Notes: generated from the sequence alone by a model not told the origin. A stretch of 32,000 nt of DNA from Alkalilimnicola ehrlichii MLHE-1 (GCF_000014785.1 NC_008340.1:840001-872000), one strand, 5' to 3'; positions 8,181 through 26,656 are shown, counted from the stretch's first letter. Numbers and translations are program-made.

Positions 8181-10574
8181 TTACTCCCCCCTCAGTACTG
8201 CACCGGCTTCCTGAGCCAGACGCTCGACCACGCGCCCCAACACGCGGTCCATGTCCTCATCAGTAAGCGTGCGCGAAGAATCCTGTAAAATCAAGCCCAT
8301 GGCAACGCTTTTCCGGCCTTCCGGCACACCCTTCCCGGCGTAGACGTCGAATAGCCGGATGTCGACCAGTTGCTCCCCCCCGGCGGCACGGGCTACGTCC
8401 ACCAGCGTCTGCGCCGGGACCTCATCCGCGACCAGCAGCGCCAGGTCCCGCCGGTTGGCCGGATAACGCGACAACGGGCGGAAGGCGGGCAGATGCCCGG
8501 CCTGCACGGCGCTGAGGTCCAGTTCGAACAGGAATACCGGTCCCTGGATGTCCAACTCGCGAGCCCGGGCGGGGTGCAGGGCGCCCAGCCAGCCGACCGG
8601 GCGGTGGTCGTGGTCGCTGTCCAGGATGCGCGCCGTCTGGCCCGGATGCAGCGCCGGGTGATGGTCGGCCTGGAACCGGAAGGCGCCGGCCCGCCCCCCG
8701 GCGGCCAGCAGGGCCTCCACATCGCCCTTGACGTCGTAGAAGTCCAGGGTGCGCCCGGGCTCCGCCCATTGCTCAGGGTGGACCGGCCCGAGGGCCAGCC
8801 CGGCGATGCGCGGTTCCTGGCGCAGGTCGCCGGCCTCGCCAATGAACCGCAGTCCGGTCTCGAACAGCCGGATACGCTGCACCTGTCGGTTCTGGTTGTG
8901 ACGGGCGGCCTGGACCAGGCCGGGCCAGAGGCTGGTCCGCATGACCGCCAGATCGGCGGAGATGGGGTTGGCCAGCGCCAGGGCCTGGTGCTCCGGATCC
9001 AGCGCCTGCTGTGCCTCCGCCGCCACGAAGGAGTAGCTGATGGCCTCGTGGTAACCGCGCTGGACCAGCGCCTGACGCAGCCGCGGCAGGCCGGTGAGCG
9101 TCTCGGGGGCCTGACCCACGGTGAGCGGGATGGGCGGGCGCCGGGTGGGCAGCCGATCGTAGCCGTAGAGGCGGGCCACTTCCTCGATCAGGTCCTCTTC
9201 GCGTTCGATGTCGAAGCGCCAGCTCGGTGGGGTGACCCACCAGACTCCTTCCCCTCCGGTCTCGACGCGCATGCCCAGCCGTTCCAGCATGCCAATAAGG
9301 GTGTCCCCGGCGATCTCCGTGCCCAGCACCAGGCGGATGCGTTGGCGCCGCAGTCGGACTGGATGGCGCCGGGGCAGGTGCTCCTCGGCGACCGCCTCCT
9401 GCACCGGTCCGGCCTCACCCCCGCAGATGGAGAGCAGCAGGTGGGTGGCGCGCTCCATGGCGCGATGCTGGCCGGCCGGGTCGACACCGCGTTCGAAGCG
9501 GTGGGAGGAGTCGGTGTGCAGACCATGGGCGCGGGCGCGGCCGGCGATGGCGGTGGGAGCGAACCAGGCGCACTCCAGCAGGATGTCGGTGGTGTCGTCG
9601 CCGACGCTGGACGCCTCTCCGCCCATGATCCCGGCCAGGGCCAGGGGGCGCTCGTCATCGGCGATAACCAGCTGGTCGGCGCGGAGTTCGATGGTCTCGC
9701 CCCCGATCAGCGTGAGGGTCTCACCCGGTCGCCCCCAGCGGGCATGGATGCCGCCCCGGACCTGGCTCAGGTCGAAGGCGTGCATGGGCTGACCCAGTTC
9801 CATCAGCACGTAGTTGGTGACGTCCACCAGCGGCCCGAGGCTGCGGAGGCCGGCCCGGCGCAGCCGCTCGCGCATCCACACGGGGGTTTCCGCGCGGGGG
9901 TCCAGGCCGCGTACGACCCGGCCCAGGTAGCGGGCGCAACCGTCCGGGGCATCGAGGGTCACCCGGACCGCATCGCTGATCCGGGCGCGCTCCGCCGGCA
10001 TGTCCGGGGTGTGCACCGGCTGCGCCAACAGGGCGCCCACCTCGCGGGCCACGCCCATCATGCCCAGGCAGTCCGCCCGGTTTGGGGTCAGGTCCACCTC
10101 GATGACGGTGTCATCCAGGGTGAGGTAGTCACGCAAGTCCCGGCCCACCGGGGCGTCGGCCGGCAGCTCCATCAGGCCCTCGGCGTCCTCGCTGAGGCCC
10201 AGTTCCCGGGCCGAGCAGAGCATGCCGAACGAGGCCTGGCCGCGCAGCTTGGCGCGCTTGATCGTCAGGCCCCCCGGCAGCTCGCCACCGACGGTGGCCA
10301 GCGGGGCCATCAGCCCCTCGCGGGCATTGGGGGCGCCGCAGACCACCTGCAGCGGTTCGCCCTGGCCCGCGTCCACCTGGCAGAGGCGCAGCTTGTCGGC
10401 ATCGGGGTGCGGCTCGCAGCGGACGATGCGGGCCACCACCACGCCGGTAAAGGGCGGGGCGGCGGGTTCCACGCCGTCCACTTCCAGGCCGGCCATGGTC
10501 AGTTGGTGGGCCAGTTGTTCCGTGGGGCCGGTGTCGGCCACCCATTCACGCAGCCAGTGTTCGCTGATTCGCAT
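8181..10574 (-). CDS. pheT: Phenylalanine--tRNA ligase beta subunit
   Basis: 797 aa. The N-terminus [12 protein letters not shown] is typical of PheT. The tRNA-binding, B3/4 and B5 architecture is implied by length, and the gene lies directly downstream of pheS. Confidence 0.97.
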
Positions 10575-10628
10575 GGATCAGTCCCGTCCTTGTCCGGGGC
10601 AGGGGTCGCCGGGCCGGCGTCGGCCGGC

Positions 10629-11846
<1,218 letters not shown>

Positions 11847-12206
11847 TCAGGCGGCGAGGGCCTCGCGGGCCTTCTCGGCCAGCGCGCCGAAGGCCGCCTT
11901 GTCGTTGACGGCCAGGTCGGCCAGCACCTTGCGGTCCAGATCGACCCCAGCCTGCTGCAGGCCGTTGATGAACCGGCTGTAGGACAGGCCGTGCTGGCGG
12001 GCACCGGCGTTGATCCGCTGGATCCACAGGGCCCGGAACTGGCGCTTGCGCTGCCGGCGGTCGCGATAGGCGTACTGGCCGGACTTGATGACGGCCTGGC
12101 GCGCAATGCGGAACGATTTGCGGCGGGCGCCGTAGTAACCCTTCGCCTTCTTCAGCACCTTGTTGTGCTTGGCGCGGGCAGTGACTCCTCGCTTGACTCT
12201 GGACAT
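11847..12206 (-). CDS. rplT: 50S ribosomal protein L20
   Basis: 119 aa: [67 protein letters not shown]. This is a canonical L20 sequence. Confidence 0.97.
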
Positions 12207-12236
12207 GACTTGATAACTCCCGGCGAACGGTAACGC

Positions 12237-12434
12237 TTAGCTGTAAGGCATCATGCGGCGGATCATGGGGGTGTCCGCCTCGGCGACCAGCGCATCGGCG
12301 CGCAGCTTGCGCTTCCGTTTGCTGTCCTTCTTGGTCAGGATGTGGTTGTGGAAGGCATGGGCGCGCTTGTAGCGGCCGCTGGCAGTGGCCTTGAAGCGCT
12401 TGGCCGCCCCACGGTTGGTCTTGATCTTGGGCAT
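12237..12434 (-). CDS. rpmI: 50S ribosomal protein L35
   Basis: From ORF 12237..12512. The true start is ATG 12432-12434, giving the 65-aa protein [42 protein letters not shown] Shine-Dalgarno sits just upstream. Confidence 0.95.
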
Positions 12435-12445
12435 TCCAGACTCCC

Positions 12446-12493
12446 TAAATAACAAACAAAGACGCCACCCCCGGTACTGACCCCGGGGTGGCG
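12446..12493 (-). terminator. Hairpin plus U-tract between infC and rpmI (terminator/attenuator or L20-operator-region structure)
   Basis: On the minus strand: GCCACCCCGG, an 8-nt loop, CCGGGGGTGGC (one bulged G), then TTTGTTTGTTATTTA. The rpmI Shine-Dalgarno follows immediately. Confidence 0.5.
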
Positions 12494-12512
12494 CCAGGGG
12501 ATCGGGTGGCAA

Positions 12513-13070: not shown

Positions 13071-14996
13071 TTAATCCTCCGAGTTGCTGCGTCCCAGCCG
13101 CGCGATCTCGGACTCCAGGCGCTGCAGGAAGTCGTCGACTGCCATGGAGCCCAGGTCCTGACCCTCTCGGGTGCGCACGGCCACCGTGTTGTTTTCCACT
13201 TCCTTGTCCCCCACGACCAGCATGTAAGGGACCTTTTGAAGCGTGTGCTCGCGGATTTTAAAGCCGATCTTCTCGTTTCTCAAGTCGGCGTCGACCCGCA
13301 AGCCCCGCTCACGGAAGCGCTTTTCGATCCGACGGGCGTATTCGCCCTGCCGATCCGTGATATTAAGCACGACTGCCTGCACCGGTGCAAGCCATGGAGG
13401 CAGGGCGCCGGCGTAGTGTTCGATGAGAATCCCGATGAAGCGTTCCAACGAACCGAGGATCGCCCGGTGGAGCATCACCGGCACCTTCTTGCTGCCGTCC
13501 TCCGCCACATAGGTGGCGCCCAGGCGCCCGGGCATGGAGAAGTCCACCTGAATGGTGCCCAGTTGCCAGGTGCGGCCCAGGCAGTCCTTCAGGGTGAACT
13601 CGATCTTCGGGCCGTAGAAGGCCCCCTCACCCGGCTGCAGTTGCCACTCCAGGCCGGCGCGGTTCAGCGCCTCCTCCAGCGCGTGTTCCGCCTTGTCCCA
13701 GAGGGCGTCCTCGCCCACCCGTTCATCGGGGCGGGTGGACAGGGCGATGATGACGTCGTCGAAGCCGAAATCGTTGTAGGCCTTGAAGACCAGGTCGATG
13801 AAGTCGGCAACCTCCTGCTGGATCTGGTCCTCGGTGCAGAAGATGTGGGCATCGTCCTGCACAAAGTTGCGCACCCGCATCAGCCCGTGCAGCGTGCCCG
13901 AGGGCTCGTTGCGGTGGCAGGAGCCGAATTCGGCCAGGCGCAGGGGCAGGTCACGGTAACTCTTCAGGCCCTGGTTGTACACCTGCACGTGGCAGGGGCA
14001 GTTCATGGGCTTGACCGCGTAGTCCCGGGACTCGGACTCGGTGATGAACATGTTGTCCTGGAATTTGTCCCAGTGCCCGGATTTCTCCCAGAGGCTGCGG
14101 TCCACCAACTGCGGGGTGTGGATCTCCTGGTAGCCGTGGCCGCGGGTGAGCCGGCGGATGTACTCCTGCACCTCCAGGTAGATCTGCCAGCCTTTCGGGT
14201 GCCAGAAGGCCATGCCCGGGGCCTCCTCCTGGAGGTGGAACAGGTTCTGCGCACGGCCGATGCGGCGGTGATCGCGCTTCTCGGCCTCGGCCAGGCGGTG
14301 GAGATAGGCCTTGAGCTGCTTCTTGTCCGGCCAGGCGGTACCGTAGATGCGCTGGAGCATCTCGTTGTCGGACTTGCCGCGCCAATAGGCCCCCGCCACC
14401 TTCTGCAGCTTGAAGGCCTTGAGCTTGCCGGTGTTGGGCACGTGCGGGCCGCGGCACAGATCGAGGAAGTCCCCCTGCTTATAGACCGAGATGGTCTCGT
14501 GCTCGGGCAGGTCCTCGATGATCTCGGCCTTGTACTGCTCACCCTGTTCCAGGAAGAACCGGATTGCCTCATCGCGGTCCCAGACCTCGCGGTGGACCTC
14601 GAAGTCCTGTCGGGCCAGCTCCTCCATCTTTTTCTCGATGGCCTTGAGATCGTCCTCGGTGAAGGGGCGCTTGTAGGCAAAGTCGTAGTAGAAACCGTTC
14701 TCGATCACCGGGCCGATGGTGACCTGGGCCTCCGGAAACAACTCCTTGACCGCCTGCGCCATCAGGTGGGCGGTGGAGTGGCGGATCATGTCCACGCCGT
14801 CCGGATCGCGGTCGGTGACGATCTCCAGTTGCACGTCGTCGTCGATGCGATGGCTGAGATCGACCAGTCTGCCGTCCACCCGGCCGGCCAGCGCGGCACG
14901 CGCCAGGCCCTTGCCGATGGACTCGGCGACGTCACGTACCGTGACGGGATGATCAAACTCGCGGCGGGAGCCGTCGGGGAGGGTGATTGCAGGCAT
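13071..14996 (-). CDS. thrS: Threonine--tRNA ligase
   Basis: 641 aa. It has a TGS-domain N-terminus ([28 protein letters not shown]) and editing plus class II catalytic core motifs ([29 protein letters not shown]). The order thrS-infC-rpmI-rplT is classic. Confidence 0.97.
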
Positions 14997-15108: not shown

Positions 15109-16101
15109 TCAAGCCCCGGGCTCGGGTTTTTGCGCGGCACCAAAGATGCGTTGGGCGAAGGCGACCCGAGCTGCGGGCGGGTAGAGCGTGTCGTCCTGCT
15201 GGCGGATGCGCTCGCGCTCATGGGCGTCGATGTGCGCCACCCGGGGCGCGAGCCCGCACCGGTTGGCCATCTGGATGGCCAGTCCGGGCCGGGCGTTCAG
15301 CTCCAGCAGCAGCGGCCCGCGGTGGCGGTCCAGCACCATGTCGGTGCCCAGGTAGCCCAGGCCACTCATCTCGTAGCAGCCGGCGGCCAGCTCCAACAGG
15401 CGGGTCCAGTCAGGGATCTGGAGCTCGTTGAGGCGGCGGCCGGTGTCGGGATGGTGGTGCACCGGTCGGTCGTATTGCACCGCCTGGGTGGCCCGGCCGC
15501 TGGCCAGGTCCAGGCCGACGCCGATGGCCCCCTGGTGCAGGTTGGCCTTGCCGTCGGAGGCGTGGGTGGACAGCCGCATCATGGCCATCAGCGGATAGCC
15601 CCGGTAGACCACCACCCGGATGTCCGGCACCCCCTCGAAGGTGAAGGACTCGAAGTGTTCATCGAACTCGATCAGCGCCTCGATCATCGCCACGTCCGGG
15701 CTGCCGCCCAGGGTGTAAAGCCCCGAGAGCAGATTGGAGAGGTAGCGCACCACATCGCGCCGGCTCACCCAGAGCCCGCTGCCCTTGCGGAACCAGCCGT
15801 CCTTGTGTTCCAGGATGACCAGGATGCCCTTGCCGCCGCTGCCCCGGGAGGGCTTGATGGCGAAGCCCCGGCCAGGCTGGATGATGGACTCCAGCCGGCG
15901 AATCTCACCCTGGCTGTGGATCACCCCCAGCAGTTCGGGACTGGCGATACCGTACTTGCGCGCCAGCAGCTTGGTCTTCAGCTTGTCATCCACCAGCGGG
16001 AATCGCTCGCGGGGATTGTGCCGGTTGATGAGGCTGAGATTGCGCTCGTTCAGCCCCACGATACCCTGCTCGCGCAGGCGCCTGGCCCAGCGCAGCAGCA
16101 T
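15109..16101 (-). CDS. RimK-related ATP-grasp ligase (alpha-L-glutamate-ligase-like protein)
   Basis: From ORF 15109..16146. I prefer the start at ATG 16099-16101 (MLLRWARRLREQGIVGLNERN), which forms an ATGA overlap with the stop of the upstream gene. ATP-grasp motifs are present (FAIKPSRGSGGKGILVI; LGYLGTDMVLD...GPLLLELNARPGL). Confidence 0.85.
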   Translation of the reverse strand: MLLRWARRLREQGIVGLNERNLSLINRHNPRERFPLVDDKLKTKLLARKYGIASPELLGVIHSQGEIRRLESIIQPGRGFAIKPSRGSGGKGILVILEHKDGWFRKGSGLWVSRRDVVRYLSNLLSGLYTLGGSPDVAMIEALIEFDEHFESFTFEGVPDIRVVVYRGYPLMAMMRLSTHASDGKANLHQGAIGVGLDLASGRATQAVQYDRPVHHHPDTGRRLNELQIPDWTRLLELAAGCYEMSGLGYLGTDMVLDRHRGPLLLELNARPGLAIQMANRCGLAPRVAHIDAHERERIRQQDDTLYPPAARVAFAQRIFGAAQKPEPGA

Positions 16102-17621
16102 CAGGTGCGGCCCCCGGCCGGTGTCAGGAAGGGGCGGAAACGCCACAGCTCCAGCAGCCGGTACCCGGTGTAGCTGCCCAGCAGTACGATGCCGGCCAGC
16201 ACCACCAGCTGCAGCCCAAGGAAGTTGAACATCAGGTGCTGAACCCAGCCCAGCTGCATCAGCCAGAAGGCGGCGATCGCGGTGATCAGACTGCCTGCCC
16301 CCTGCTTGAAGACATCCCGCGGGCCCTCCTCCTCCCAGAGGATGGACATGCGCTCAATGGTCCAGGCCAGGATGATCATCGGAAACAGGGCCACCTTGAG
16401 CCCCGAGGTGAAGCCCAGGTGGAAGCTCAGCACCGAGAGCAGTGAGATCAACCCGATGACGCAGACAATGACCACGGAGACGCGGGCCACCAGCAGCAGG
16501 TTGAGGTGGGCCATCGCTTGGCGCATCAGCAGGCCGCCCCCCACCACCAACAGGAAGGTGATCAGACCCGGCAGCAGGTTCATCTCCAGAAAGGCGAGGG
16601 CGATGAGCACTGGCATGAAGGTGCCGGAGGTCTCCAGCCCCACCACGACGCGGAAGAAGACCACCACCAGCGCACCCAGCGGCAGCAGCAGGATGCTTTG
16701 AAAGATGGCCTGCTCGGACAGCGGCAGGCTGTGGATGGAGAGGTTGAACACCGCATCGGTTACCGTACCCTGCTCCCCCAGACCGGCGGCGGACTGCCGG
16801 GTCTCCAGCATGGAGAAGGTCACCCGCGAGTTGCGCCCGCCCTCCACCACCAGCACCGGGCCCCCCGCCTGCTCCCAGAGCAGTACTTCCTCGTCCTGCA
16901 CCTCCGTGCCCCCCTTGGGGTCAAACAGCCGCCAGGCGTCGCCCTCGAAGACCTGGACAAAGGGTTGCAGCGACTGCCGGCGGCGACCGTCCTCCAGGAC
17001 CAGGCCGTGGACGGTGCGGGCCGGCACCTCCGCCTGATTGAGCAGGCGGACCAGGGTGGTGCTGGGGGGGTATTCACTGAGTAGCAGCTGGGCATTCTGA
17101 TTGTCGGCATCGGCCAGGCGGCGGACGAGGGCCCGGGCCAGGCTGAAGCCGTCGGCGGACTGCAGGTAGGCATTCCGCAGGACCTGAGCGGAGGCCACCT
17201 GCAGAGACGGGCTCCAAGCGATGCGCCGGATCTCCGGTGGGTGGCCCACGTGGCGCGAGCCCAGGGTCGGGTCGACCTGGAACTGCGCCCGGTAGTACAG
17301 CACCTGCGGCCCGACCGCCTCGCGGGTGGTCCACTCGGCGTGCCGGTGGCCATTATCGACGAAGCTCAGGCCGTAGCCGGGGGAGGCCGTGTGCTCGGCG
17401 ACGCGCTTGAAACCCGGCGCATCGCCGGGCACGGCCAGCCGGACGCGTACGGGGTCGCCGCTGGCGTCCAGCCGCACGGTGGCCTCGATATCCCAGAGCG
17501 TGTCAGTGGCGCCGGGGAACCAGGGGACGCCGTGTTCCAGGTGGCGGTGGACACTGTGGGCGATGCCCACCAGGATCAGCACCGCGGCGATCCAGAACAG
17601 CGAACTTCGGGCTAGTTTCAT
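16101..17621 (-). CDS. Inactive-transglutaminase-like extracytoplasmic domain fused to a 7-TM module
   Basis: 506 aa. An N-terminal anchor helix (SLFWIAAVLILVGIA) is followed by a soluble region of roughly 280-300 aa. That region contains no cysteine at all, so it has no transglutaminase nucleophile. A C-terminal block of about 7 hydrophobic helices follows. The architecture and neighbours match the family usually annotated as 'inactive transglutaminase fused to 7 TM helices'. Confidence 0.8.
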   Translation of the reverse strand: MKLARSSLFWIAAVLILVGIAHSVHRHLEHGVPWFPGATDTLWDIEATVRLDASGDPVRVRLAVPGDAPGFKRVAEHTASPGYGLSFVDNGHRHAEWTTREAVGPQVLYYRAQFQVDPTLGSRHVGHPPEIRRIAWSPSLQVASAQVLRNAYLQSADGFSLARALVRRLADADNQNAQLLLSEYPPSTTLVRLLNQAEVPARTVHGLVLEDGRRRQSLQPFVQVFEGDAWRLFDPKGGTEVQDEEVLLWEQAGGPVLVVEGGRNSRVTFSMLETRQSAAGLGEQGTVTDAVFNLSIHSLPLSEQAIFQSILLLPLGALVVVFFRVVVGLETSGTFMPVLIALAFLEMNLLPGLITFLLVVGGGLLMRQAMAHLNLLLVARVSVVIVCVIGLISLLSVLSFHLGFTSGLKVALFPMIILAWTIERMSILWEEEGPRDVFKQGAGSLITAIAAFWLMQLGWVQHLMFNFLGLQLVVLAGIVLLGSYTGYRLLELWRFRPFLTPAGGRT

Positions 17622-17631
17622 GGGCCGGGGG

Positions 17632-18432
17632 TCAGTCGTCCTCGGGGCGTGGGTGGAGGTAGGTCTCCGCCACGTCGATCACGGCGATGTCCATCAGCAG
17701 GTCCCGGCCCACCAGGGTGGCGTAGGTCAGGTGCCCGCGGTCGGACAGCGTGAAGCGAGCCTCATCCTCAATGGGGCCCAGCCGCACCGGCAGGCGCACC
17801 ACCAGGCGTTCCTCCCGGCCAGCGGCCTGCCGTATGGTGATACGACTGTCCAAGGGGGCCTCGAGTTCAACCTCGCGGTTGTCCTCCTCGTCATCGTCGC
17901 CGGGCCGGCCCGGCGGGTAGCTCACGGTGAAGCGCACCCAGGTCTCACCGTCGCGCTCGAACTCGCTGATACCGGTGGCGTTGAGCGACGAGCTGGCGGC
18001 CCCGGAATCCACCCGGGCGGCGATCACCATGCCGTGCTCGGGGAAGGCGAGCCACTCGACGGCGCCCAGGACCACCTTGCCCTCCAGGTCGTCCTCGCGG
18101 TCGCCAGAGGGTTGGGTCTGGGCCAGCGGCAGGGGGGAGGGGGTTCCCGTGCCTCGGGCCTCCAGGTCGGTCAGGCGCTGGTCAATGCTGCCGAGGCCTT
18201 CGCCGAGGGCGCTCAACTGCTGTTGCTGGCGGTTCAGGCTGGCGCCCAGGGTGTCCAGGGCCTCCAGCAGTGCCTCGGTCTGGGCGGTTTGCTGCTGCTC
18301 GAAGGCCGAGACGGAGAGTTGCTCCTCCTGGGGGAGGGTCTGGCACCCCGCCAGCAGGCCCAGTACGGCCAGCATGGCCAGCGCGGGCCGGCGCGGGACG
18401 GTTCCCTGTCTGCGCTCGGGTCTTGGGGTCAT
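17632..18432 (-). CDS. Lipoprotein with C-terminal retropepsin-like ('ATP-dependent zinc protease', DUF785-type) aspartic protease domain
   Basis: From ORF 17632..18615. I prefer the start at ATG 18430-18432, with GGAG 8 nt upstream. This gives MTPRPERRQGTVPRRPALAMLAVLGLLAGC, a lipobox L-A-G-C. A Gln/Leu-rich linker follows, then a domain with the retropepsin signature ARVDSGAASSSL (D-S-G-A) and LVGRDLL near the C-terminus. Confidence 0.8.
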   Translation of the reverse strand: MTPRPERRQGTVPRRPALAMLAVLGLLAGCQTLPQEEQLSVSAFEQQQTAQTEALLEALDTLGASLNRQQQQLSALGEGLGSIDQRLTDLEARGTGTPSPLPLAQTQPSGDREDDLEGKVVLGAVEWLAFPEHGMVIAARVDSGAASSSLNATGISEFERDGETWVRFTVSYPPGRPGDDDEEDNREVELEAPLDSRITIRQAAGREERLVVRLPVRLGPIEDEARFTLSDRGHLTYATLVGRDLLMDIAVIDVAETYLHPRPEDD

Positions 18433-18648
18433 AGTCGCACTCCGTTGCTTTGTTCGCGTTCGAAGTATCATGCGGTGGATTGTACGTGGTTTTCGCCCGG
18501 CGTTGACCCGTCTGCACTCACTCCCCCATGAAACAGAGAGGTCCGCGAGGGGCGTGTTTCGCCTCCGGGCTGTTAAAGTGGCGCCTGAGCCCACGCCGGC
18601 TGCTCGCGGGGGCATCGCGCCGCCATTATATTGCCCGGGAGATCATCA

Positions 18649-19374
18649 ATGACCTATTGCCTCGCTGCATCCCTCAAGGCGGGCCTGGTCTTCGCCGCCG
18701 ATACCCGCACCAACGCCGGCCTGGATCATGTGAATAGCTTCCGTAAGATGCACAGCCTTGTCTGGGAAGGGGACCGGGTACTGGTGTTGCTCAGCGCTGG
18801 CAACCTGGCGACCACGCAGGCTGTGGTAACCCACCTGCAGCGCGAGGCCGAGAGCGGGGGGCCGTTGAGTGAGGTCCGGCACCTGAGTGACGCCGCCGAT
18901 CACGTGGGCCAGGTCAGTTTGCAGGTCCAGCGTAAATACCGCGCTGCCGAGGATATGAGTGCCGTATCGCTGGAGGCTACCTTTATCCTGGGCGGGCAGA
19001 TCGGTGACGAGCCCACGGGGGCGTTCCTCATCTATCCGCAGGGCAATTTCATCACCTGCTCCGAGGAGCAGCCCTTCCTGCAGATCGGCGAGACCAAGTA
19101 CGGCAAACCAATCCTGGACCGTATTATCGAGCCGGGGTTGAGCCTGGAGGATGCCGCGCGCTGCGCCCTGGTCTCTATCGACTCGACCATGCGCTCCAAC
19201 CTGTCGGTGGGCCCACCCGTCGATCTGGCCATCTATCCGGCGGGCGCGCTCCAGCGCCCCCGTATGCTGCGCTACAAGCACAACTCGCCCTATTTTGCCT
19301 CCGTCCGCAAGCACTGGGGCGAGGGGCTGCGCCGTCTCTTTGACGACCTGCCGCGGTTCGATTGGGAGGGCTGA
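18649..19374 (+). CDS. Anbu-type proteasome-like Ntn peptidase (ancestral beta subunit)
   Basis: From ORF 18631..19374. The start is at ATG 18649, giving MTYCLAASLKAGLVFAADTRTNAGLDHVNSFRKM. Thr immediately follows Met and would be the N-terminal nucleophile after Met removal. Asp17 and Lys32 (mature numbering) sit at proteasome-beta catalytic positions. The length of 241 aa is typical of Anbu. Confidence 0.85.
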   Translation: MTYCLAASLKAGLVFAADTRTNAGLDHVNSFRKMHSLVWEGDRVLVLLSAGNLATTQAVVTHLQREAESGGPLSEVRHLSDAADHVGQVSLQVQRKYRAAEDMSAVSLEATFILGGQIGDEPTGAFLIYPQGNFITCSEEQPFLQIGETKYGKPILDRIIEPGLSLEDAARCALVSIDSTMRSNLSVGPPVDLAIYPAGALQRPRMLRYKHNSPYFASVRKHWGEGLRRLFDDLPRFDWEG

Positions 19375-19396
19375 CCGGGTCGGGCGCGGGTCAGCC
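19369..19396. terminator. Hairpin spanning both convergent stop codons (possible bidirectional terminator)
   Basis: GGCTGACC (19369-19376) and GGTCAGCC (19389-19396) form an 8-bp stem with a 12-nt loop. No U-tract is present on either side, so the call is weak. Confidence 0.25.
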
Positions 19397-20449
19397 CCCC
19401 GGGGGGCGCCGTTCGCCGGTGACCACCGCGTGAACCTCCCGGTGCACGGCCTCGAGTTTCTCGGCGACGGTGGGTGTGATCGTGAAGGGATACATGTCCG
19501 GTGACCCCATGCTCCGGCTCATGCTGTTCATTGCCATGGTCAGTTTGACCCAGGCGTTGAGCAGATACTGGAAGTCATCCCGGTCGGCGAAACTGACGGC
19601 CTTGCCCTCGTCCTCCAGGACCAGTCCGAGCCCTTCGGCGGTCTCCAGCGCGTCCCGCATGTGCAGGTAGTGGGCCCAGGTCTCTGCCCAGTCCTCCCAG
19701 GGGTGGCTGCTGGCGTACCGGCTGATGTGCTGTTCCTGCCAGTACCGGTTCGGCTGGTTGTAATGCTGCCTCAGCGCCTGTCCGTAGTCCTGGCGCTCGT
19801 CGCCGAACACGGCGCGGAAGGTGGGTTGCCGACCGGTGTCGGCAAAGAACCGCTCCCAGAAATAGTGCCCGCTCTCATGGCGGAAGTGACCGAGCAGGGT
19901 CCGGTAGGGCTCGCCCAGCTTCTCCCGCACCGCCTCCCGCCGTACCGGGTCGGCCTCGCCGATATTGATGGTGATCAGCCCGTTGGTGTGACCGGTGGAG
20001 ACGGACTGTCCCTCGATCGGATCGGCGAGAAAGGCGAAGGCCAGGCCGGAGGGGTCTCGAGGGGTTCGGCCGTGGATCGGCAGGCCGATGTGCAGCAACT
20101 GGTAGATCAGGCGGCGTTTGGCCGCCTCCAGCTTGCCCCAGCGTTGCCAGTTTACGGGCACCGAGAGGTCCGGGATGACATGGTTCAGCCGGCAGGCCAG
20201 GCAGTGCGGGTTGGGGTCCTCCGCCGGCACCATCCAGTTGCACACCCCCGAGTGCTCGTAGTGCGCGCACTGGCGGTAGCGGCGCTGGCCGGCCTCGGGA
20301 TTCAGCGCCGTCCAGAGGCCGTCCCGGTCCTGGCGCAGTGCGGAGACGGTGAGCCGATCGGGCAGGAAACCCAACTGATGGTGGCAGTTGAGGCAGTAGG
20401 TGTTGTCAAAGTACAGGTGGTTGCCGCACTGGCACTGGAAGCGTCTCAT
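19391..20449 (-). CDS. Zinc-ribbon domain fused to a putative HExxH zinc metallopeptidase
   Basis: From ORF 19391..20965. The real start is ATG 20447-20449 (MRRFQCQCGNHLYFDNTYCLNCHHQLGF), which overlaps the alpha-E stop as ATGA. The N-terminal Cys-rich ribbon has CxC...CxxC and further Cys/His residues. The central motif FRHESGHYFWERFF contains HExxH. 352 aa. Confidence 0.8.
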   Translation of the reverse strand: MRRFQCQCGNHLYFDNTYCLNCHHQLGFLPDRLTVSALRQDRDGLWTALNPEAGQRRYRQCAHYEHSGVCNWMVPAEDPNPHCLACRLNHVIPDLSVPVNWQRWGKLEAAKRRLIYQLLHIGLPIHGRTPRDPSGLAFAFLADPIEGQSVSTGHTNGLITINIGEADPVRREAVREKLGEPYRTLLGHFRHESGHYFWERFFADTGRQPTFRAVFGDERQDYGQALRQHYNQPNRYWQEQHISRYASSHPWEDWAETWAHYLHMRDALETAEGLGLVLEDEGKAVSFADRDDFQYLLNAWVKLTMAMNSMSRSMGSPDMYPFTITPTVAEKLEAVHREVHAVVTGERRPPGG

Positions 20450-21381
20450 GGTGTGAACCGGAAGTAGGCGTGCACCACTTCGCCGTGCAGGTTCGCGAAC
20501 CCCTGCTGCAGACTGTCGATGAAATCGTGCATCTCCTGCGGGGACAACCCGGACAGGTTGGCGTCCGCCAGTACCGACTGCAGCTCGGTCAGACGGGCGA
20601 TGGGGCCCTCCCGGGCAGGGAGCTCCCCCAGGCACTGGCGTATTCGCGACAGGGCGAAGCCCACGGCGCGCGGGAAGCGTTCGCCCTGTAACAGGTAGTG
20701 CACCACGTCGCGACCGCGGACCAGCCCGTGGAGGTCTTGGCGATACATCTCGTAGGCGCTGAGCGAGCGCAGGACGCTGATCCAACAGACCGAGGAGTAG
20801 TAGGCATCGCCGTCGTCGCCATCCACCGGGAAGAGGCTGGCATAGCGGACGTCCAGTATCCGCGTCGTCATGTCGGCCCGCTCCAGGTAACGGCCGAGGG
20901 CGATGAACTGATACCGCGGCCCCCGGCTGACAGAGCCATGCAGCACGCCCTGTATCTGCTGGCACTGGGCCACGACGGCGGCCAGCAGATCATAGCGCCG
21001 GCGCCGGCTGGCGATGCCGGCCTCATGGGCCTGGACCAGGTGATGAAGCCCGTTGATGGCCTCCCAGGCCTCGCGGGGCAGAAGATCGCGGGTGACCCGG
21101 GCGTTCTCCCGGGCGCTGTGGGCGCTCGAGGCGATGGAGCCGGGGTAGCCGGTGTCGCTGATCAGAAAGCGCATGACGGTGGGCTCGTTCTCCGAGCCAT
21201 GCTCTGCCCGGTACGGCTCGCTGGCGCCGAGGATCTCCAATAGCGACTGCCAGCTCATGGGCATGCCGGCGGGCAGATCCATCTGGATCTGCGCCGAGGC
21301 CAGCAGCAGTCGCGCGGTGTCCTCGGTACGCTCCAGGTAGCGCGCCAGCCAATAGATGTTCTCGGCCAGTCTCGACAGCAT
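20446..21381 (-). CDS. Alpha-E domain protein (DUF403 family)
   Basis: 311 aa. The N-terminus MLSRLAENIYWLARYLERTEDTARLL is the hallmark of the alpha-E family. It is translationally coupled to both neighbours, with TGATG at 21379-21383 and ATGA at 20446-20449. Confidence 0.85.
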   Translation of the reverse strand: MLSRLAENIYWLARYLERTEDTARLLLASAQIQMDLPAGMPMSWQSLLEILGASEPYRAEHGSENEPTVMRFLISDTGYPGSIASSAHSARENARVTRDLLPREAWEAINGLHHLVQAHEAGIASRRRRYDLLAAVVAQCQQIQGVLHGSVSRGPRYQFIALGRYLERADMTTRILDVRYASLFPVDGDDGDAYYSSVCWISVLRSLSAYEMYRQDLHGLVRGRDVVHYLLQGERFPRAVGFALSRIRQCLGELPAREGPIARLTELQSVLADANLSGLSPQEMHDFIDSLQQGFANLHGEVVHAYFRFTP

Positions 21382-22850
21382 CAGCCCGCCACCCCGTTGG
21401 CCGTATCCTCCCCGGTATCCACCACCCAGGTGTCCTTGCTACCACCCCCCTGGGAGGAATTGACAATCAGTGAGCCCTTGCGCAGCGCCACCCGGCTGAG
21501 CCCGCCGGTGGTCACGTTGAAGCCCTTGCCCTGGAGCACGAACGGGCGCAGGTCCACGTGACGTGGTTCGATCTCCCCGGCGCAGAGGGTGGGGCAGGTG
21601 GAGAGGCTCAGGGTGGGTTGGGCGATGTAATTGCGGGGGTTGGCCCGGATGAGTTCGGCGAACTGGGCCCGTTCGTCGTCGGAGGCGTTGGGGCCGATGA
21701 GCATGCCGTAACCGCCCGATTCATTGGCCGGTTTGATGACCAGTTCGTGCAGGTGGTCGAGCACGTAGGCGCGGGCCTCGGGGTCGACGCACTGCCAGGT
21801 TGGGACGTTCGGCAGTATCGGTTCCTCGCCGAGAAAGTAGCGGATCAGGTCGGGTACATGGGCGTAGACCACCTTGTCGTCGGCCACGCCGGCGCCGGGG
21901 GCGTTGGCGATGGCCACGTGCCCCTTGCGCCAGGCGCGCAGCAGCCCCGGCACACCCAGCGTGGAGTCGGCGCGGAAGGCCTCCGGGTCGAGGAAGTCGT
22001 CATCGATCCGGCGGTAGATGACGTCCACCCGCTCCAGCCCGTGGATGGTGCGCATGTAGACGTGGTCGTCATCACTGACCACCAGGTCGCGCCCCTCCAC
22101 CAGCTCCGCCCCCATCTGCTGCGCCAGGTAGCTATGCTCAAAGTAGGCGGAGTTATAGATGCCCGGGGTCAGGACCACGATTTCCGGGTTGGGGGTGTCC
22201 GGTGCCAGCGAGGCGAGGGTGTCGAGCAACTGGCCCGGGTAGGCATCCACCGGCATGATCCGGTTGTGCTCGAACAGTTCGGGGAATATGCGTTTCATGA
22301 CATGCCGGTTCTCCAGCATGTAGGACACCCCCGAGGGCACGCGCAGGTTGTCCTCCAGAACGTAGAGGGTGCCGTCCTTGTCGCGCACTAGGTCGGTGCC
22401 GCAGACGTGGGCCCATACCCCGTGCGGCGGCGAGATGCCCCGGCATTGCGGCCGGAAGTCGCGGGACTGAAGCACCACGGACTCGGGCACCACGCCGTCG
22501 CGCAACGCCCGCTGGTCGTTGTAGATGTCGTTGATGAATAGATTCAGGGCGCGCAAACGTTGGAAGAGCCCGGCCTGGATGGTCGCCCACTCCTGGCGTT
22601 CGATGATCCGCGGTACGAAATCGAACGGCCAGGAGCGGTCGATGTTCTGGCCGTCAGAGTAGACAGTGAAGGTGATACCCATCGCCCGGATGGTGGCATC
22701 CGCGGCCTGGTGGCGGTCCGCCAGTTCCTCCACCGACAGTGACTTGAGGTACTCGAGCAGGTGCCCGCAGCCGGGCCGGGGCTGACCACTGGCATCCACC
22801 AGTTCGTCGTAGTATCCGTTGCCGGGCCGGTAGCCGTTCCATCGCTGCAT
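21381..22850 (-). CDS. Circularly permuted type-2 ATP-grasp protein (DUF404/DUF407 family)
   Basis: From ORF 21381..22970. I prefer the start at ATG 22848-22850 (MQRWNGYRPGNGYYDELVD), with GGAGG about 9 nt upstream, giving 489 aa. Family-typical segments are present (RAMGITFTVYSD...DRSWPFDFVPRII; VIKPANESGGYGMLIGP; VNSSQGGGSKDTWV). Confidence 0.85.
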   Translation of the reverse strand: MQRWNGYRPGNGYYDELVDASGQPRPGCGHLLEYLKSLSVEELADRHQAADATIRAMGITFTVYSDGQNIDRSWPFDFVPRIIERQEWATIQAGLFQRLRALNLFINDIYNDQRALRDGVVPESVVLQSRDFRPQCRGISPPHGVWAHVCGTDLVRDKDGTLYVLEDNLRVPSGVSYMLENRHVMKRIFPELFEHNRIMPVDAYPGQLLDTLASLAPDTPNPEIVVLTPGIYNSAYFEHSYLAQQMGAELVEGRDLVVSDDDHVYMRTIHGLERVDVIYRRIDDDFLDPEAFRADSTLGVPGLLRAWRKGHVAIANAPGAGVADDKVVYAHVPDLIRYFLGEEPILPNVPTWQCVDPEARAYVLDHLHELVIKPANESGGYGMLIGPNASDDERAQFAELIRANPRNYIAQPTLSLSTCPTLCAGEIEPRHVDLRPFVLQGKGFNVTTGGLSRVALRKGSLIVNSSQGGGSKDTWVVDTGEDTANGVAG

Positions 22851-22998
22851 GTGCGGGCGCCTCCAGGGGGCCGGTGCCCCGAACAGGACGCCAACGCGCG
22901 TTGCCGGGGCTGCAGGCCCTGTTGCCATCGGCCTGAGTATAGGCCAGTCTTGTGTTTTGCAGTGCAACACAGGGTGGCGGGCTTTGCAACTCCCCGGC

Positions 22999-23013
22999 TG
23001 GCACGCGCATTGC
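22999..23013 (+). promoter_or_regulatory. Candidate sigma54 (-24/-12) promoter upstream of the transglutaminase gene
   Basis: TGGCAC-GCGCA-TTGC matches the TGGCAC-N5-TTGC core exactly. It is on the plus strand, with the -12 GC about 37 nt upstream of ATG 23050. Confidence 0.4.
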
Positions 23014-23049
23014 GCGCAGCCCCGCGCCTACGAACCAGGAGATTCGAGA

Positions 23050-23850
23050 ATGTGGCTACGCACGGCTTGCGAGATCCAGTTTCACGAGAGCGTGCCCGCT
23101 CCCTTCGTCCTGATGCTCCGCCCGCGAAGCGGCAAGCATCAATGGGTCGGGCGTGAGACCTATGTGCTGCAGCCCAACGTGCCGGCGGTGGAGTACACGG
23201 ATGCCTACGGCAATCTCTGCCAGCGGCTGGTCTCCCCGCCCGGGGCGTTCCTGATCCGCACCTCGGCGGATGTCTATGTGCCCGACCAGGGTGCTGATGC
23301 CACGGGGGCGCCCTTCGTCGAGGTGCAGGACCTGCCCGATGACGCGCTGACCTACCTCTTGCCCAGCCGTTACTGCGAGTCGGACCGTTTTCTGGACATG
23401 GCCTGGTCCATCGTGGGTGACGCGCACCCCGGCTACGACCAGGTGGCGCGGATAGAGGCGTGGATCCGCGAGCATGTCCACTTCAACCCGGACTCACCCC
23501 ACTTTCAGTTGTCCGCCGTGGAGCTGAACCAGGCGCGGGAGGGCGTATGCCGGGAATTCGCCCACCTGGGCATCGCGCTCTGCCGGGCGCTGTGCGTCCC
23601 CGCGCGGATGGCGGTGGGTTACCTGCACGGGCTCCAGCCCATGGATTTTCACGCCTGGTTCGAGGCCTATGTCGGCGGCCGCTGGTGCGTGTTCGACGCC
23701 ACCCAGCCCCCGGGGCGTCGTGGCCGGGTGACCGTGGCCTACGGGCGGGATGCGGCCGATGTCGCCATCTACAACCAGTTCGGCCCGCCGATGTACCCGA
23801 CGCGGATCAGCGTCACGGTGGATCGCCTGGAGGGGCCGCCTGCGGTGTGA
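23050..23850 (+). CDS. Transglutaminase-family protein with intact Cys-His-Asp triad
   Basis: From ORF 22849..23850. The start is at ATG 23050 (MWLRTACEIQF), with AGGAG 8 nt upstream. The core motifs are REGVCREFAHLGIALCRAL (nucleophile Cys), MDFHAWFEAYV (His) and WCVFDATQ (Asp). The N-terminal beta-rich region is typical of bacterial transglutaminase N-domains. Confidence 0.85.
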   Translation: MWLRTACEIQFHESVPAPFVLMLRPRSGKHQWVGRETYVLQPNVPAVEYTDAYGNLCQRLVSPPGAFLIRTSADVYVPDQGADATGAPFVEVQDLPDDALTYLLPSRYCESDRFLDMAWSIVGDAHPGYDQVARIEAWIREHVHFNPDSPHFQLSAVELNQAREGVCREFAHLGIALCRALCVPARMAVGYLHGLQPMDFHAWFEAYVGGRWCVFDATQPPGRRGRVTVAYGRDAADVAIYNQFGPPMYPTRISVTVDRLEGPPAV

Positions 23851-23852: not shown

Positions 23853-24323
23853 CTAAAACTCGACGGTGGCCGTGATGGTGTCGTCGTAGACACCGGCTGC
23901 CACATTCTGGTCGGCGAACACCCGTCCGTAGACCGGGTAATACCGGGTCACGGTCAGCACCCCCAGCGTATAACTATCGGTCACCGTCGCCGTATCGTCG
24001 GTGCCGTCGCCCCAGATCTCGGTGCGGGCAGTATCTACATAGAGGTTGTAGTCCAGGGTGTCGGTCGCGCTGCTCAGCGCGCGGGGGTGGTAGCTGCCCC
24101 CGGTGCCGGGATCCAGGCTGATCTCGTATGACACCAGCAGGCTCACCAACCCCAGCAGACTGCAACTGACGCTGACCTCGCTGGCCCCATCCACCTGGGC
24201 CCCGGTGATCGGGTCGTATTGGCCGAAGGCCAGCGGGTCGGCGCTGATAGAGCAAGTATAGGCCTGGGCCGATCCGGACCCGGCGGCGACGAGGAACAGG
24301 GAAAGCCCGATAGCTCGCTTCAT
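23853..24323 (-). CDS. SCPU (spore coat protein U) domain pilus subunit, distal gene
   Basis: From ORF 23853..24407. The start is at ATG 24321-24323 (MKRAIGLSLFLVAAGSGSAQA/YTCSISADPLAFGQYDP), forming an ATGA overlap with the usher stop. It has a signal peptide, a conserved Cys pair (TCSI...VSCS) and a C-terminal ...ITATVEF beta strand. Confidence 0.8.
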   Translation of the reverse strand: MKRAIGLSLFLVAAGSGSAQAYTCSISADPLAFGQYDPITGAQVDGASEVSVSCSLLGLVSLLVSYEISLDPGTGGSYHPRALSSATDTLDYNLYVDTARTEIWGDGTDDTATVTDSYTLGVLTVTRYYPVYGRVFADQNVAAGVYDDTITATVEF

Positions 24324-26656
24324 TCCGGCGGTACCTCCTTGCAGGTGACGGGACCGATGCGCGGCTGCGGCCCGGCATCGGCGGGACGGGTGATCTGCGC
24401 GGTGCACGCGCGCCCGTCCCAGCGGGCGGTGAGCCGGGCGGTGTCCCGGAGGCCGGTCACGTACACCCAGCCATGGTGCGCCACCGGGAAGCGTTCGTCA
24501 TGCTCCGCCAGGCGCACCGTACTGCCGGCCGGTAGGGGGTCCCCCTGCTCATCCACCAGTTGCACCAGGGCGCCGTAGGCGGGGGCGATGTCGAAATGGG
24601 CCAGCACGCCGCTGCGGCGCCGGGGAACCACCACCAGTTCCGGGCTGTCGATGCGGGCCTCCAGGGGGATGTCGTCCAGTTCAATGGCGAGCCGTTGCGC
24701 CTCGTAGGCACGCAGCCGGGGCACCAGGGCCATGGCGCGCTGGTTGCTGCGGGCCACCAGGTGGTTGTTGCGGTAGATCCCCACCCCCGGGTACTCGCCG
24801 GTGCGCACCACTGCGAAGCCGTCGTCGATACGGCGCGAGGCGAACAGGCCGCCATCCATATAGGCAAAGCCGCCGCGCAGTCCGGCGCGGTAGGCGGTTA
24901 CCCCGGCGCGTTGGGCGGCCGCCACGTCGAAGCTGGTTACCGCGGTATTGCCCCGCAGGCGGGCCTCCAGGCGTTCATTCGGCCCGTCCTCGGCCAGAAC
25001 CCGCCAGCCGATACCCGGGCCGGGCGGTGGGCTGCGTTGCAGGCTCACGCCCTGGCGGCGGCTGTCGCCGTCGCGGGAGTGGTAGGCGCTTCCGGAGGTC
25101 CGTGTGCCCAGCCGGCGGGTCAGGGTGATGCGGATGCTGTGATCGCGGTCCCCCAGCTCCGTCCGGGTCAGGGAGATGGACAGGGCCGTGTGTTCACCCA
25201 GTCGGCGCCGGTGGCTGAGGGTGTAGGAGCGAAAGGTGCGGCTCTCACGCGGCTCCCGGTAGAGGGTGGAGGCGGCCCAGGAGCCGTGGCGGCCGAAGGA
25301 GCGGCTGACGTGGGCTTGGGCCTGGTAGCGCGGCAGGGCCCCGGGCGGCGCACCCAGTTGGGTGTAGTGGCGGCTGGCGTGGCTCAGGCGCAGCCCGAAG
25401 CTGTAAGGCCGGGCCTGGCGTAGCAGTCCGGCGCGGGCAAGCTGGCCCTCGCCCGCGTCGGACTGGCTGACGGCCAGGGTGAGATCTGCAACGGCCCAGT
25501 CCAAGAGCAGGTGACTCAGTGAGAACCCGCCGGTCTGTTGATCCTCGGCGATCTCCAGGCGGCCCTCGCCGGTCAGCGTGGGGCTGAGCCCATGGCGAAT
25601 CAGCCCGGCACCGAAACCGGTACCGTAGCGGTGGCTTTCCCGGCCGAAATCGCGGCGCAGTTGGCCCAACGCCAGGTGATAATCCGTCAGCCCCGGTTTC
25701 AGCAGCCGTGGGTTGGCGTGATAGGGCTGGGTCACCACCTGTTCCCGGCCCAGCAGGTCGCGGATCACCAACTGCATCTCGCCTTCCCCGGTGACCACCG
25801 GTGGGTCACGGATCTCGAAGGGGCCGGGCGGGACGTCCCGCCGGAGGGCAAGCCGGTTGTCCACGTAGAGTTCCAGTGTGGAGGGCAGGGGGGTCTCGCC
25901 GGCCACGGTGGGCGCCGCCGTGGTGCTGAAGTAGGGGTCCAGGGAGAAATCCGTGCCCCATTGGATGCCGCCGAAGCGCATGGGCGAGCCCCAGGCCCCG
26001 GGCCGGGTGGTGCCGTCCCCGATGCGCAGGCGCCGGCGCTGTTCCGGTTGGTCCACCGTCCACTCCGTCTCCAGGCGGACCCACTCCCGATCATCGCCAA
26101 AATCCTGCAGCAGCCATGTCCCGCCGCCACTGCCACCGGCCCCGAACAGCCGGGTTTCGAACAAGCCACTGGTATCCACGTGCCCGGAACCGCGCTGCTG
26201 GGCGTGCAGGTCGTAGTTGAGAAAGGCGCCGCCGGGGCCGGGCGAGGGCGGATGCCGCCGGGGGGTGGGGCTGATCCGGTGGGGGCGGAATATCGAGGCC
26301 GGCCCGCTGATGTGCAGTTCCTGTTGCGGCTCGTCGATGCGGTATTCCAGTTCCGCGATCGCGTCCAGGGGGTAGTGGGGGCTCCCGCCGCGGATGAGCG
26401 GGGCGCTGTCGGGCAGGCGCAGCCCCAGTCGCTCAATGTCATCGCGCGGTAGATAGACCAGTCCATCCAGCTTCAGCGCGAAGGCGCAGAATGGCGCCAA
26501 CTGGCCATTGACCCGGGGTACCAGCAGCACCAGTTCGGCATCCGCAGCGACCGGGCAATCGGGCAGCGTCTCCGCCCGTGCCGGTGCGGCGGCCATCAGT
26601 GCCGCCATCAGTATCAGGAGGTGGAAAAGTGGGATCGCGCACCGGGGCAGGCCCAT
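24320..26656 (-). CDS. Fimbrial outer-membrane usher
   Basis: 778 aa with a signal peptide (MGLPRCAIPLFHLLILMAALMAAAPARA). Its composition is Gly/Arg/Tyr/Ser-rich, as in beta-barrels. Its size and its position between the chaperone and a subunit gene are diagnostic of a chaperone-usher operon. Confidence 0.8.
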   Translation of the reverse strand: MGLPRCAIPLFHLLILMAALMAAAPARAETLPDCPVAADAELVLLVPRVNGQLAPFCAFALKLDGLVYLPRDDIERLGLRLPDSAPLIRGGSPHYPLDAIAELEYRIDEPQQELHISGPASIFRPHRISPTPRRHPPSPGPGGAFLNYDLHAQQRGSGHVDTSGLFETRLFGAGGSGGGTWLLQDFGDDREWVRLETEWTVDQPEQRRRLRIGDGTTRPGAWGSPMRFGGIQWGTDFSLDPYFSTTAAPTVAGETPLPSTLELYVDNRLALRRDVPPGPFEIRDPPVVTGEGEMQLVIRDLLGREQVVTQPYHANPRLLKPGLTDYHLALGQLRRDFGRESHRYGTGFGAGLIRHGLSPTLTGEGRLEIAEDQQTGGFSLSHLLLDWAVADLTLAVSQSDAGEGQLARAGLLRQARPYSFGLRLSHASRHYTQLGAPPGALPRYQAQAHVSRSFGRHGSWAASTLYREPRESRTFRSYTLSHRRRLGEHTALSISLTRTELGDRDHSIRITLTRRLGTRTSGSAYHSRDGDSRRQGVSLQRSPPPGPGIGWRVLAEDGPNERLEARLRGNTAVTSFDVAAAQRAGVTAYRAGLRGGFAYMDGGLFASRRIDDGFAVVRTGEYPGVGIYRNNHLVARSNQRAMALVPRLRAYEAQRLAIELDDIPLEARIDSPELVVVPRRRSGVLAHFDIAPAYGALVQLVDEQGDPLPAGSTVRLAEHDERFPVAHHGWVYVTGLRDTARLTARWDGRACTAQITRPADAGPQPRIGPVTCKEVPPE

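Follow-up and report, generated by a model that had tools for sequence, protein, structure and literature searches.

A three-gene cassette of Alkalilimnicola ehrlichii MLHE-1 as an orthologue of rloABC: retropepsin-like protease, inactive transglutaminase-7TM protein and ATP-grasp ligase

The operon rloA-rloB-rloC of Pseudomonas aeruginosa (PA14_41690/41710/41730, i.e. PA1768-PA1767-PA1766) encodes a retropepsin-like protease that is secreted, a fusion of an inactive transglutaminase with a seven-transmembrane (7TM) domain, and an ATP-grasp protein (Lormand et al. 2025, mBio, PMC12239564). It has been characterised genetically (PMC12239564), and RloA orthologues have also been characterised structurally. 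In vitro, RloA cuts runs of at least 8 alpha-linked glutamates via the residues K46, R114 and R137. A mutant without all three RloA paralogues does not grow in low-salt medium and shows defects in cell shape, biofilm and beta-lactam tolerance, while the deletion of rloB or rloC rescues this triple mutant (PMC12239564). Here, we describe three genes in a stretch of 32,000 nucleotides (nt) from Alkalilimnicola ehrlichii MLHE-1 (the window, to which all coordinates refer). They almost certainly represent an orthologue of rloABC, and thus of an operon that is already known and named. In the following the genes are called rloA, rloB and rloC (Table 1).

Data from other Gammaproteobacteria are available, too. 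In Vibrio cholerae the orthologues are induced by the cell-wall-damage regulator VxrAB (PMC12239564), and in an independent screen in Shewanella the disruption of an inactive transglutaminase-7TM gene altered the production of membrane vesicles (PMC12096838). A literature search for TIGR02291, UUP1 and the Pfam family names revealed nothing further. Predicted amidoligase systems were reportedly collected by Iyer, Abhiman, Burroughs and Aravind in 2009 (Mol Biosyst), a study from which the Pfam families ATPgrasp_ST, Transglut_i_TM and 7TM_transglut are said to derive, and we take the present locus to be an instance of their triad of ATP-grasp protein, inactive transglutaminase-7TM protein and peptidase. 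A preliminary description of the locus, made from the DNA sequence alone, had presented this triad as a predicted system with an undefined product. The statement on the product still holds true, while the system is no longer only a predicted one, as it now bears the name rloABC and both its genetics and RloA structures are published.

Two further systems have to be considered for comparison. RimK/RimB(/RimA) has in common with the locus a homologue of an ATP-grasp alpha-L-glutamate ligase and a DUF785/PF05618 retropepsin-like peptidase that trims poly-glutamate (poly-Glu). However, RimK and RimB are cytoplasmic and act on ribosomal protein S6, whereas here the protease is exported, the gene of a membrane protein lies in between and the ligase fails the RimK cut-off. 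The Gram-positive PgsBCA/CapBCA systems with PgdS/CapD share the general logic, since a cytoplasmic or membrane-bound amide ligase makes an anionic Glu polymer, which is exported and cut by an extracytoplasmic hydrolase. The families involved are nevertheless unrelated (PgsB is Mur-ligase-like) and the linkage is gamma, compared to the alpha-linked test substrates of RloA, so that the resemblance would be one of functional analogy.

Compared to rloABC of P. aeruginosa, the locus agrees in the Pfam architectures of all three proteins as well as in gene order and common strand, and it shares the catalytic Asp and the poly-Glu-coordinating arginines. Differences concern mainly the protease. RloA of A. 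ehrlichii is a predicted lipoprotein of 266 amino acids (aa) with a helix of 54 residues and a disordered linker, while Pseudomonas RloA comprises about 159-178 aa, and the active site reads DSG here and DTG there. Furthermore, RloA and RloB of A. ehrlichii lie under the cut-offs of the named models, and the phenotype data come from P. aeruginosa alone.

Between positions 15109 and 18432, the listing of open reading frames and direct reading of the sequence agreed with the preliminary description in showing three tightly packed, co-oriented genes on the minus strand. The same holds true for the gap of 10 nt between rloA and rloB (17622-17631, CCCCCGGCCC). For the junction of rloB and rloC, an ATGA overlap of stop and start codon had been described at 16101. 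The position was confirmed, but the junction reads TGATG (ACC TGA TGC) with the A at 16101 common to stop and start, resulting in an overlap of 1 nt instead of 4 nt. The start of rloA at 18432 is preceded by GGAG 8 nt 5' of the ATG, and NCBI protein P0121 (266 aa, A. ehrlichii MLHE-1) is identical to RloA with 100% identity and coverage and the same start. The G+C content of 67% is compatible with this organism. A longer open reading frame starting at 18615 was rejected, since it would bury the signal peptide and both the Shine-Dalgarno sequence and the NCBI start point to 18432.

The three families named in the preliminary description were all recovered by searches with hidden Markov models (PF05618 for RloA, PF14400 and PF14402 for RloB, PF14397/TIGR02291 for RloC), with scores far above those expected by chance. 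RloA matched PF05618 with 1.3e-30, restricted to residues 121-262. As is characteristic for RloA proteins, this domain carries an active site of the D-T/S-G type and is preceded by a signal for export at the N-terminus. RloB matched PF14400 (Transglut_i_TM) with 2.5e-50 and PF14402 (7TM_transglut) with 1.2e-99, is free of Cys in residues 1-386 and shows the fold of 3isr, in line with the features of RloB. The properties of RloC proteins, a cytoplasmic location and the TIGR02291/ATPgrasp_ST type, were likewise found. Among the NCBIfam models, RloA3 was the best match of RloA with 99.8 bits compared to a cut-off of 210, followed by RimB with 78 bits. Both values lie under the equivalog cut-offs, and an assignment as NCBIfam equivalog of RloA1, RloA2 or RloA3 failed. 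RloA of A. ehrlichii is accordingly a family member by its operon context and no equivalog of any single P. aeruginosa paralogue. RloB reached 308 bits over the full length of the NCBIfam RloB model, a narrow model of the 'exception' type with a cut-off of 900. Several of the RloA and RloB models are of this type, and we take their cut-offs to be tuned to Pseudomonas proteins.

The RloB family comprises at least 5673 proteins at an expectation value (E) < 1e-10, and the closest named relatives originate from Marinospirillum (about 60%) and Halomonas (about 53%). A genome scan with a profile of 13 RloB sequences yielded 80 loci spanning Nitrincola, Marinospirillum, Halomonas and relatives, Vibrio, Photobacterium, Aeromonas, Oceanisphaera, Zobellella, Methylophaga, Psychromonas, Azoarcus and others. 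Homologues of all three genes were present in the order A-B-C on one strand in each of the 80 loci, and neither thrS nor any gene of the Anbu-type cluster, both of which adjoin the cassette in A. ehrlichii, was located within 6 kb in any of them. In the closest available relative, GCA_001564335.1 (locus 9174-12504), rloABC is followed by thrS, while thiS-thiG-usp lie upstream. Since the three genes are co-conserved in 80/80 loci and the upstream genes of the relative differ, they behave as a self-contained cassette. A comparison of the two close relatives showed 60% identity for RloA and 87% for both RloB and RloC, which indicates that the protease diverges fastest of the three, apparently mainly in its stalk.

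These data also bear on the idea that the cassette and the divergently oriented Anbu-type cluster next to it belong to one peptide-modification island. Both are predicted amidoligase/peptidase systems and they directly adjoin each other. Nonetheless, not one of the 80 rloB loci carried an Anbu-cluster gene within the 6 kb searched, and the relative GCA_001564335.1 shows thiS-thiG-usp at this place, so that a functional link was rejected as very unlikely.

RloC showed its best match to PF14397 (ATPgrasp_ST, 7.7e-88), while the RimK domain of Pfam gave merely 1.8e-6. It passes TIGR02291 ('alpha-L-glutamate ligase-like protein') with 435 bits compared to a cut-off of 314, but fails the RimK family TIGR00768 with 30.7 bits compared to 143.4. 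Neither a signal peptide nor a transmembrane (TM) segment was found on reading its sequence. The ATP-grasp motifs DKL, IKPsrGsgGkG (IKPxxGxxGxG), DIR, NLHqG (NLHxG) and D...ELNarPG (D...ELNxxPG) are present and align with the RimK structures 7qys, 5zct and 4iwx at marginal E-values of 0.01-0.02, with all RimK matches in the PDB lying between 0.01 and 0.05. Since the motifs are intact but the E-values to RimK structures only reach 0.01-0.02, RloC is best described as a catalytically plausible, distant relative of RimK and not as its orthologue. The former term 'RimK-like' is loose, as ATPgrasp_ST and TIGR02291 are the best families.

Ordinary glutamylation of S6 by a RimK/RimB pair, with rloB as an unrelated neighbour, could be suspected from the homology of both families to RimK and RimB. 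It was rejected based on the score for TIGR00768, on the co-conservation of rloB in all 80 loci, on the export signal of RloA, which means that the protease cannot reach S6, and on the finding that in P. aeruginosa no genetic interaction exists between rimB and the rloA genes (PMC12239564). The probability of such a system is regarded as negligible. The preliminary description had named a clustering of the ligase with true RimK, together with partners that are not co-conserved, as an observation that would speak against it. The opposite was found for both.

For RloA, the preliminary description had reported the lipobox LLAGC and the retropepsin motif DSGA, which were located at residues 26-30 and 142-145. 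In a search against the PDB, RloA matched 9g59 (2.6e-12), 2pma and 9g58, with residues 119-263 covered in each case. An alignment of 16 homologous sequences showed, among others, D142, G144, A145, R209, R232 and R243 to be invariant, while the position two before the catalytic Asp is always basic (R140 in A. ehrlichii). The alignment to 9g59 shows R140, R209 and R232, too. The spacing of D142-R209-R232 amounts to 67 + 23 residues compared to 66 + 23 for D48-R114-R137 in RloA of P. aeruginosa. R140, R209 and R232 were equated with K46, R114 and R137 by this spacing and not by a direct alignment to the P. aeruginosa sequence. Since the spacing matches and R209 and R232 are invariant, the residues binding poly-Glu appear to be retained.

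In addition, an acidic insert, GDDDEEDNRE, was observed at residues 177-186 (window 17875-17904), in a loop that connects two strands of the protease domain and possibly belongs to the flap region. It was found solely in the closest relatives, whereas Halomonas orthologues carry acidic C-terminal tails instead. In a protease that binds poly-Glu, such an insert could be a candidate for an auto-inhibitory segment mimicking the substrate.

The N-terminus of RloA consists of an Arg-rich n-region and a hydrophobic h-region, followed by LLAGC. The pattern [LVI][ASTVI][GAS]C at the end of the signal peptide is matched by LAGC with Cys30, which makes RloA a predicted lipoprotein. The AlphaFold2 (AF2) model, with a mean predicted local distance difference test score (pLDDT) of 81, comprises a signal helix (15-27), a continuous helix (41-94), a disordered stretch (97-112) and a confident beta domain (120-257). 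The region of the long helix is rich in Leu, Gln and Glu with a net charge of -11, and the helix reaches a pLDDT of about 87-94. Based on this model, the helix may form a coiled-coil stalk, which would aid the obligate dimerisation of the retropepsin and set its distance from the membrane.

The operon-linked RloA orthologues of the 80 loci were compared in this respect. The simple lipobox test was positive in 70 of the 80 proteins, and two of the failures were cut at contig ends. The residue at +2 was never Asp. Between Cys and active site, a median of 116 residues (range 103-145) was determined, and it is the length of this spacer and not its sequence that is conserved. Active sites were DTGA in 56/80 and DSGA in 22/80, the latter in the group of Halomonas, Marinospirillum and Nitrincola. 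Beyond Pseudomonas, the operon-linked RloA is usually a lipoprotein of roughly 245-310 aa with a long helical stalk, while the Pseudomonas forms are short (159-178 aa in the NCBIfam models) and annotated with a type I export signal. Based on the lipobox in 70/80 sequences and the spacer of 103-145 residues, the predicted stalked lipoprotein is judged to be the common form of RloA in the operon and the short Pseudomonas form the exception. Lipoproteins are not mentioned in the work on P. aeruginosa (PMC12239564). The modest addition made by the present locus is therefore the prevalence of the stalked lipoprotein among the operon-linked proteases, a point absent from the published work on the short form.

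In RloB, C387 is the only Cys and lies in the TM region. Residues 1-386 are consequently free of Cys, which extends the stretch of roughly 300 Cys-less residues described before. No invariant Cys was present among 13 RloB homologues. One N-terminal TM helix and seven C-terminal ones were assigned (PF14402 match; AF2 helices from 301 to about 494), in line with the estimate of about 7 TM helices behind the extracytoplasmic domain. The AF2 model (mean pLDDT 73) shows the N-terminal TM helix, a beta-sandwich (39-116), a helical/beta core (138-277), a disordered linker (278-303) and a helical membrane domain. The only significant fold match of the model in the PDB was 3isr, a transglutaminase-like putative Cys protease (probability 1.0, TM-score of 0.52 by target). 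For the membrane half, the fold search against the PDB gave no convincing transporter, matches to resistance-nodulation-division pumps with TM-scores of about 0.1 being noise. The sequence search of RloB against the PDB yielded spurious matches to G-protein-coupled receptors alone.

Since the extracytoplasmic domain contains no Cys, the catalytic Cys-His-Asp triad of transglutaminases is judged to be absent from RloB, a triad whose detection would have contradicted the preliminary description. For orientation only, RloB was compared by hhalign to the active Transglut_core protein encoded in the same window. The weak match over 43 columns (E of 0.047, low probability) pairs VPAR...G and W..FD and places Gln219 at the position of the catalytic His and D234 at that of the Asp.

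The conservation of RloB is distributed unequally, with about 49% invariant columns in the membrane half compared to about 22% in the periplasmic half. The longest invariant run among RloB homologues is W420-P434 (WTIERMSILWEE.GP; window 16320-16364). In the periplasmic domain, R213-R214-R215-Q216 (window 16974-16985) and a motif of E76/T78-G82 are invariant. The helix count and the positive-inside rule would place the N-terminus (K2, R5) and the Arg-rich C-terminus inside, and the loop of residues 420-434 would therefore be cytoplasmic. Its conservation suggests a candidate site for docking of RloC or for entry of the RloC product, while RRRQ (213-216) suggests a basic patch that might bind a polyanion.

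Taken with the data from P. aeruginosa, a sequence of synthesis, export and trimming can be proposed. RloC would build an acidic peptide in the cytoplasm. This would most likely be an alpha-linked poly- or oligo-glutamate, which could be free or bound to a carrier. The conserved 7TM half of RloB in the inner membrane would pass or present this product at the periplasmic face, where it would be held by the dead, Arg-rich transglutaminase-like domain, and RloA, a lipoprotein on a helical stalk and probably dimeric like other retropepsins, would cut the poly-Glu chain. The system would serve envelope homeostasis, comprising osmotic tolerance, cell shape and beta-lactam tolerance. Since the deletion of rloB or rloC rescues the triple protease mutant, the output of RloB and RloC is harmful unless it is processed by RloA (PMC12239564). 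The handling of a polyanion is supported by R140/R209/R232 in RloA and by the invariant RRR 213-215 in the periplasmic domain of RloB. The sequence data establish the protein families, the conservation of the operon and of the catalytic Asp and substrate-binding arginines in RloA, and the lack of a transglutaminase nucleophile in RloB. By contrast, we infer for A. ehrlichii which product RloC makes, that RloB acts in export, that RloA is lipid-anchored with a dimeric stalk, and that the phenotype can be transferred. The preliminary description had assumed a poly-Glu-like peptide that is processed outside the cytoplasm, with a dead transglutaminase fold acting as a binder or conduit. This assumption is supported and agrees with the experiments on the P. 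aeruginosa orthologues (PMC12239564). We consider the explanation as a whole to be somewhat more likely than not, and favour its specific chemistry tentatively, as plausible though short of probable.

Several points weigh against this proposal. In no organism has a product of RloC been identified, and the role of RloB was left open by the authors (PMC12239564). RloA of P. aeruginosa is short with a type I export signal, and the experiments concern this form, whereas RloA of A. ehrlichii is a predicted stalked lipoprotein whose lipoprotein status derives solely from a sequence pattern. RloA and RloB score under the NCBI cut-offs of the named RloA1-3 and RloB models. The membrane half of RloB was modelled with a moderate pLDDT of about 50-80 and gave no transporter-like fold match. 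Finally, Pfam calls the family of RloC (PF14397) 'Sugar-transfer associated', which makes a non-peptide acceptor possible.

This last point leads to another explanation, in which a cell-surface glycan, a lipid-linked precursor or peptidoglycan is the target of the cassette. In this case, RloC would attach an amino acid to a sugar or to the carboxylate or amine of a muropeptide, the precursor would be flipped or positioned by RloB, and a peptide stem would be processed by RloA. Besides the name 'Sugar-transfer associated ATP-grasp', the phenotypes in P. aeruginosa fit this idea, since altered cell shape, beta-lactam sensitivity and the failure of hypo-osmotic growth all concern the cell wall (PMC12239564), as does the regulator VxrAB inducing the V. 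cholerae orthologues (PMC12239564). On the other hand, the conserved cassette consists of three genes in 80/80 loci without a glycosyltransferase or polysaccharide gene, RloC keeps the RimK-type NLHxG motif, and RloA requires at least 8 consecutive Glu (PMC12239564), with the Glu-coordinating arginines being conserved. The modification of a glycan is thus considered to be distinctly unlikely.

A second explanation keeps the glutamate chain but attaches it to a specific protein, for instance RloB itself or a protein that is exported or located in the membrane, which is polyglutamylated by RloC and for which RloA would reverse or edit the modification. RimK, the nearest characterised relative of RloC, modifies a protein (S6), and protein polyglutamylation was kept open by the authors (PMC12239564). 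A candidate acceptor would be the cytoplasmic WEEEGP loop of RloB with a TTLL-like branching at the side chain, and the longest invariant run of RloB indeed includes E430-E431-(E432). However, since this loop is predicted to be cytoplasmic and RloA is exported, the compartments do not match for RloB as a substrate. Moreover, in P. aeruginosa no periplasmic protein with an acidic run emerged as a substrate candidate (PMC12239564), and no obvious acceptor is encoded in the window. Protein polyglutamylation therefore appears rather improbable, though it deserves consideration.

Returning to synthesis, export and trimming of a glutamate polymer, the predicted features can be combined into a more detailed and clearly more speculative picture. 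The stalked lipoprotein would be the standard form of RloA, its coiled coil would dimerise the retropepsin over the Arg-rich periplasmic domain of RloB, and RloC would dock on the invariant cytoplasmic loop of RloB, resulting in one machine that delivers periplasmic oligo-alpha-glutamate as a fixed anion or osmotic buffer. We regard this complete picture as doubtful, with some chance of being correct.

Table 1. Features of the rloABC locus and its surroundings, with positions counted from the first nucleotide of the window.
Feature	Position	Strand	Length	Description and basis
rloA orthologue	17632..18432	-	266 aa	exported retropepsin-like aspartic peptidase, predicted lipoprotein
RloA signal peptide and lipobox	18343..18432	-		LLAGC at residues 26-30, Cys30, Gln at +2; direct reading
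RloA stalk	18151..18312	-		alpha-helical residues 41-94, followed by disordered linker 97-112; AF2 model
RloA protease domain	17644..18078	-		retropepsin-like beta domain, residues 119-263; Pfam, PDB matches, alignment, AF2
RloA active site	17998-18009	-		DSGA, residues 142-145; direct reading
rloB orthologue	16101..17621	-	506 aa	N-terminal TM anchor, periplasmic Cys-less transglutaminase-like domain, 7TM domain
RloB extracytoplasmic domain	16722..17531	-		residues about 31-300; beta-sandwich and transglutaminase-like core, no Cys; AF2 pLDDT about 80-90
RloB 7TM domain	16125..16721	-		residues about 301-499; PF14402, reading, alignment, AF2
rloC orthologue	15109..16101	-	330 aa	cytoplasmic ATP-grasp, alpha-L-glutamate-ligase-like
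Intergenic region	18433..18648	.		between rloA and divergent Anbu-like gene; presumed rlo promoter site, by position only
thrS	13071-14996	-		downstream of rloC, followed by pheS and pheT
Anbu-type cluster	18631-23850	both		adjoins rloA, divergent
Chaperone-usher pilus genes	24320-27490	-		beyond the Anbu-type cluster; Usher with PapC_C, PapD-like chaperone

Concerning the surroundings, a scan for a sigma-70 consensus gave no match in the intergenic region upstream of rloA. Scanning 12-20 kb for promoters and terminators revealed a single promoter-like (sigma-70-like) match at 15112-15084, over the last codons of rloC, which probably serves thrS, while no terminator-like site was detected in the gap of 112 nt between rloC and thrS. 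Since such a site is missing and thrS follows rloC in the close relative as well, read-through from rloABC into thrS is possible. An Rfam scan of the same 12-20 kb gave no RNA element. A typical Anbu operon is co-linear. The cluster next to rloA is split between both strands, with the proteasome-like Anbu gene (start probably ATG 18649, MTYCL...) and a Transglut_core gene on the plus strand, and Zn_ribbon_DZR_6 with Peptidase_Mx (start at about 20446, 1 nt common with the Alpha-E stop), Alpha-E and a circularly permuted ATP-grasp on the minus strand. The extra Peptidase_Mx gene is noteworthy, too.

Altogether, the earlier reading of the locus was correct apart from the type of overlap, and the system is an already known one, present as a plain orthologue in a sequenced genome, with nothing fundamentally new. 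For the questions of the RloC product and the role of RloB, the locus offers no easier access than the Pseudomonas system. Its relevance originates from the Rlo system itself, which is widespread in Gammaproteobacteria and in P. aeruginosa affects tolerance to osmotic stress and beta-lactams as well as cell shape and the formation of biofilms. As a unit of three genes, the cassette is strictly conserved far beyond Pseudomonas, in the present case in a haloalkaliphile, an organism to which osmotic homeostasis is of central importance. If the picture of the stalked machine holds true, its product would be a polymer previously unknown in the Gram-negative periplasm, with a role akin to that of the osmoregulated periplasmic glucans.

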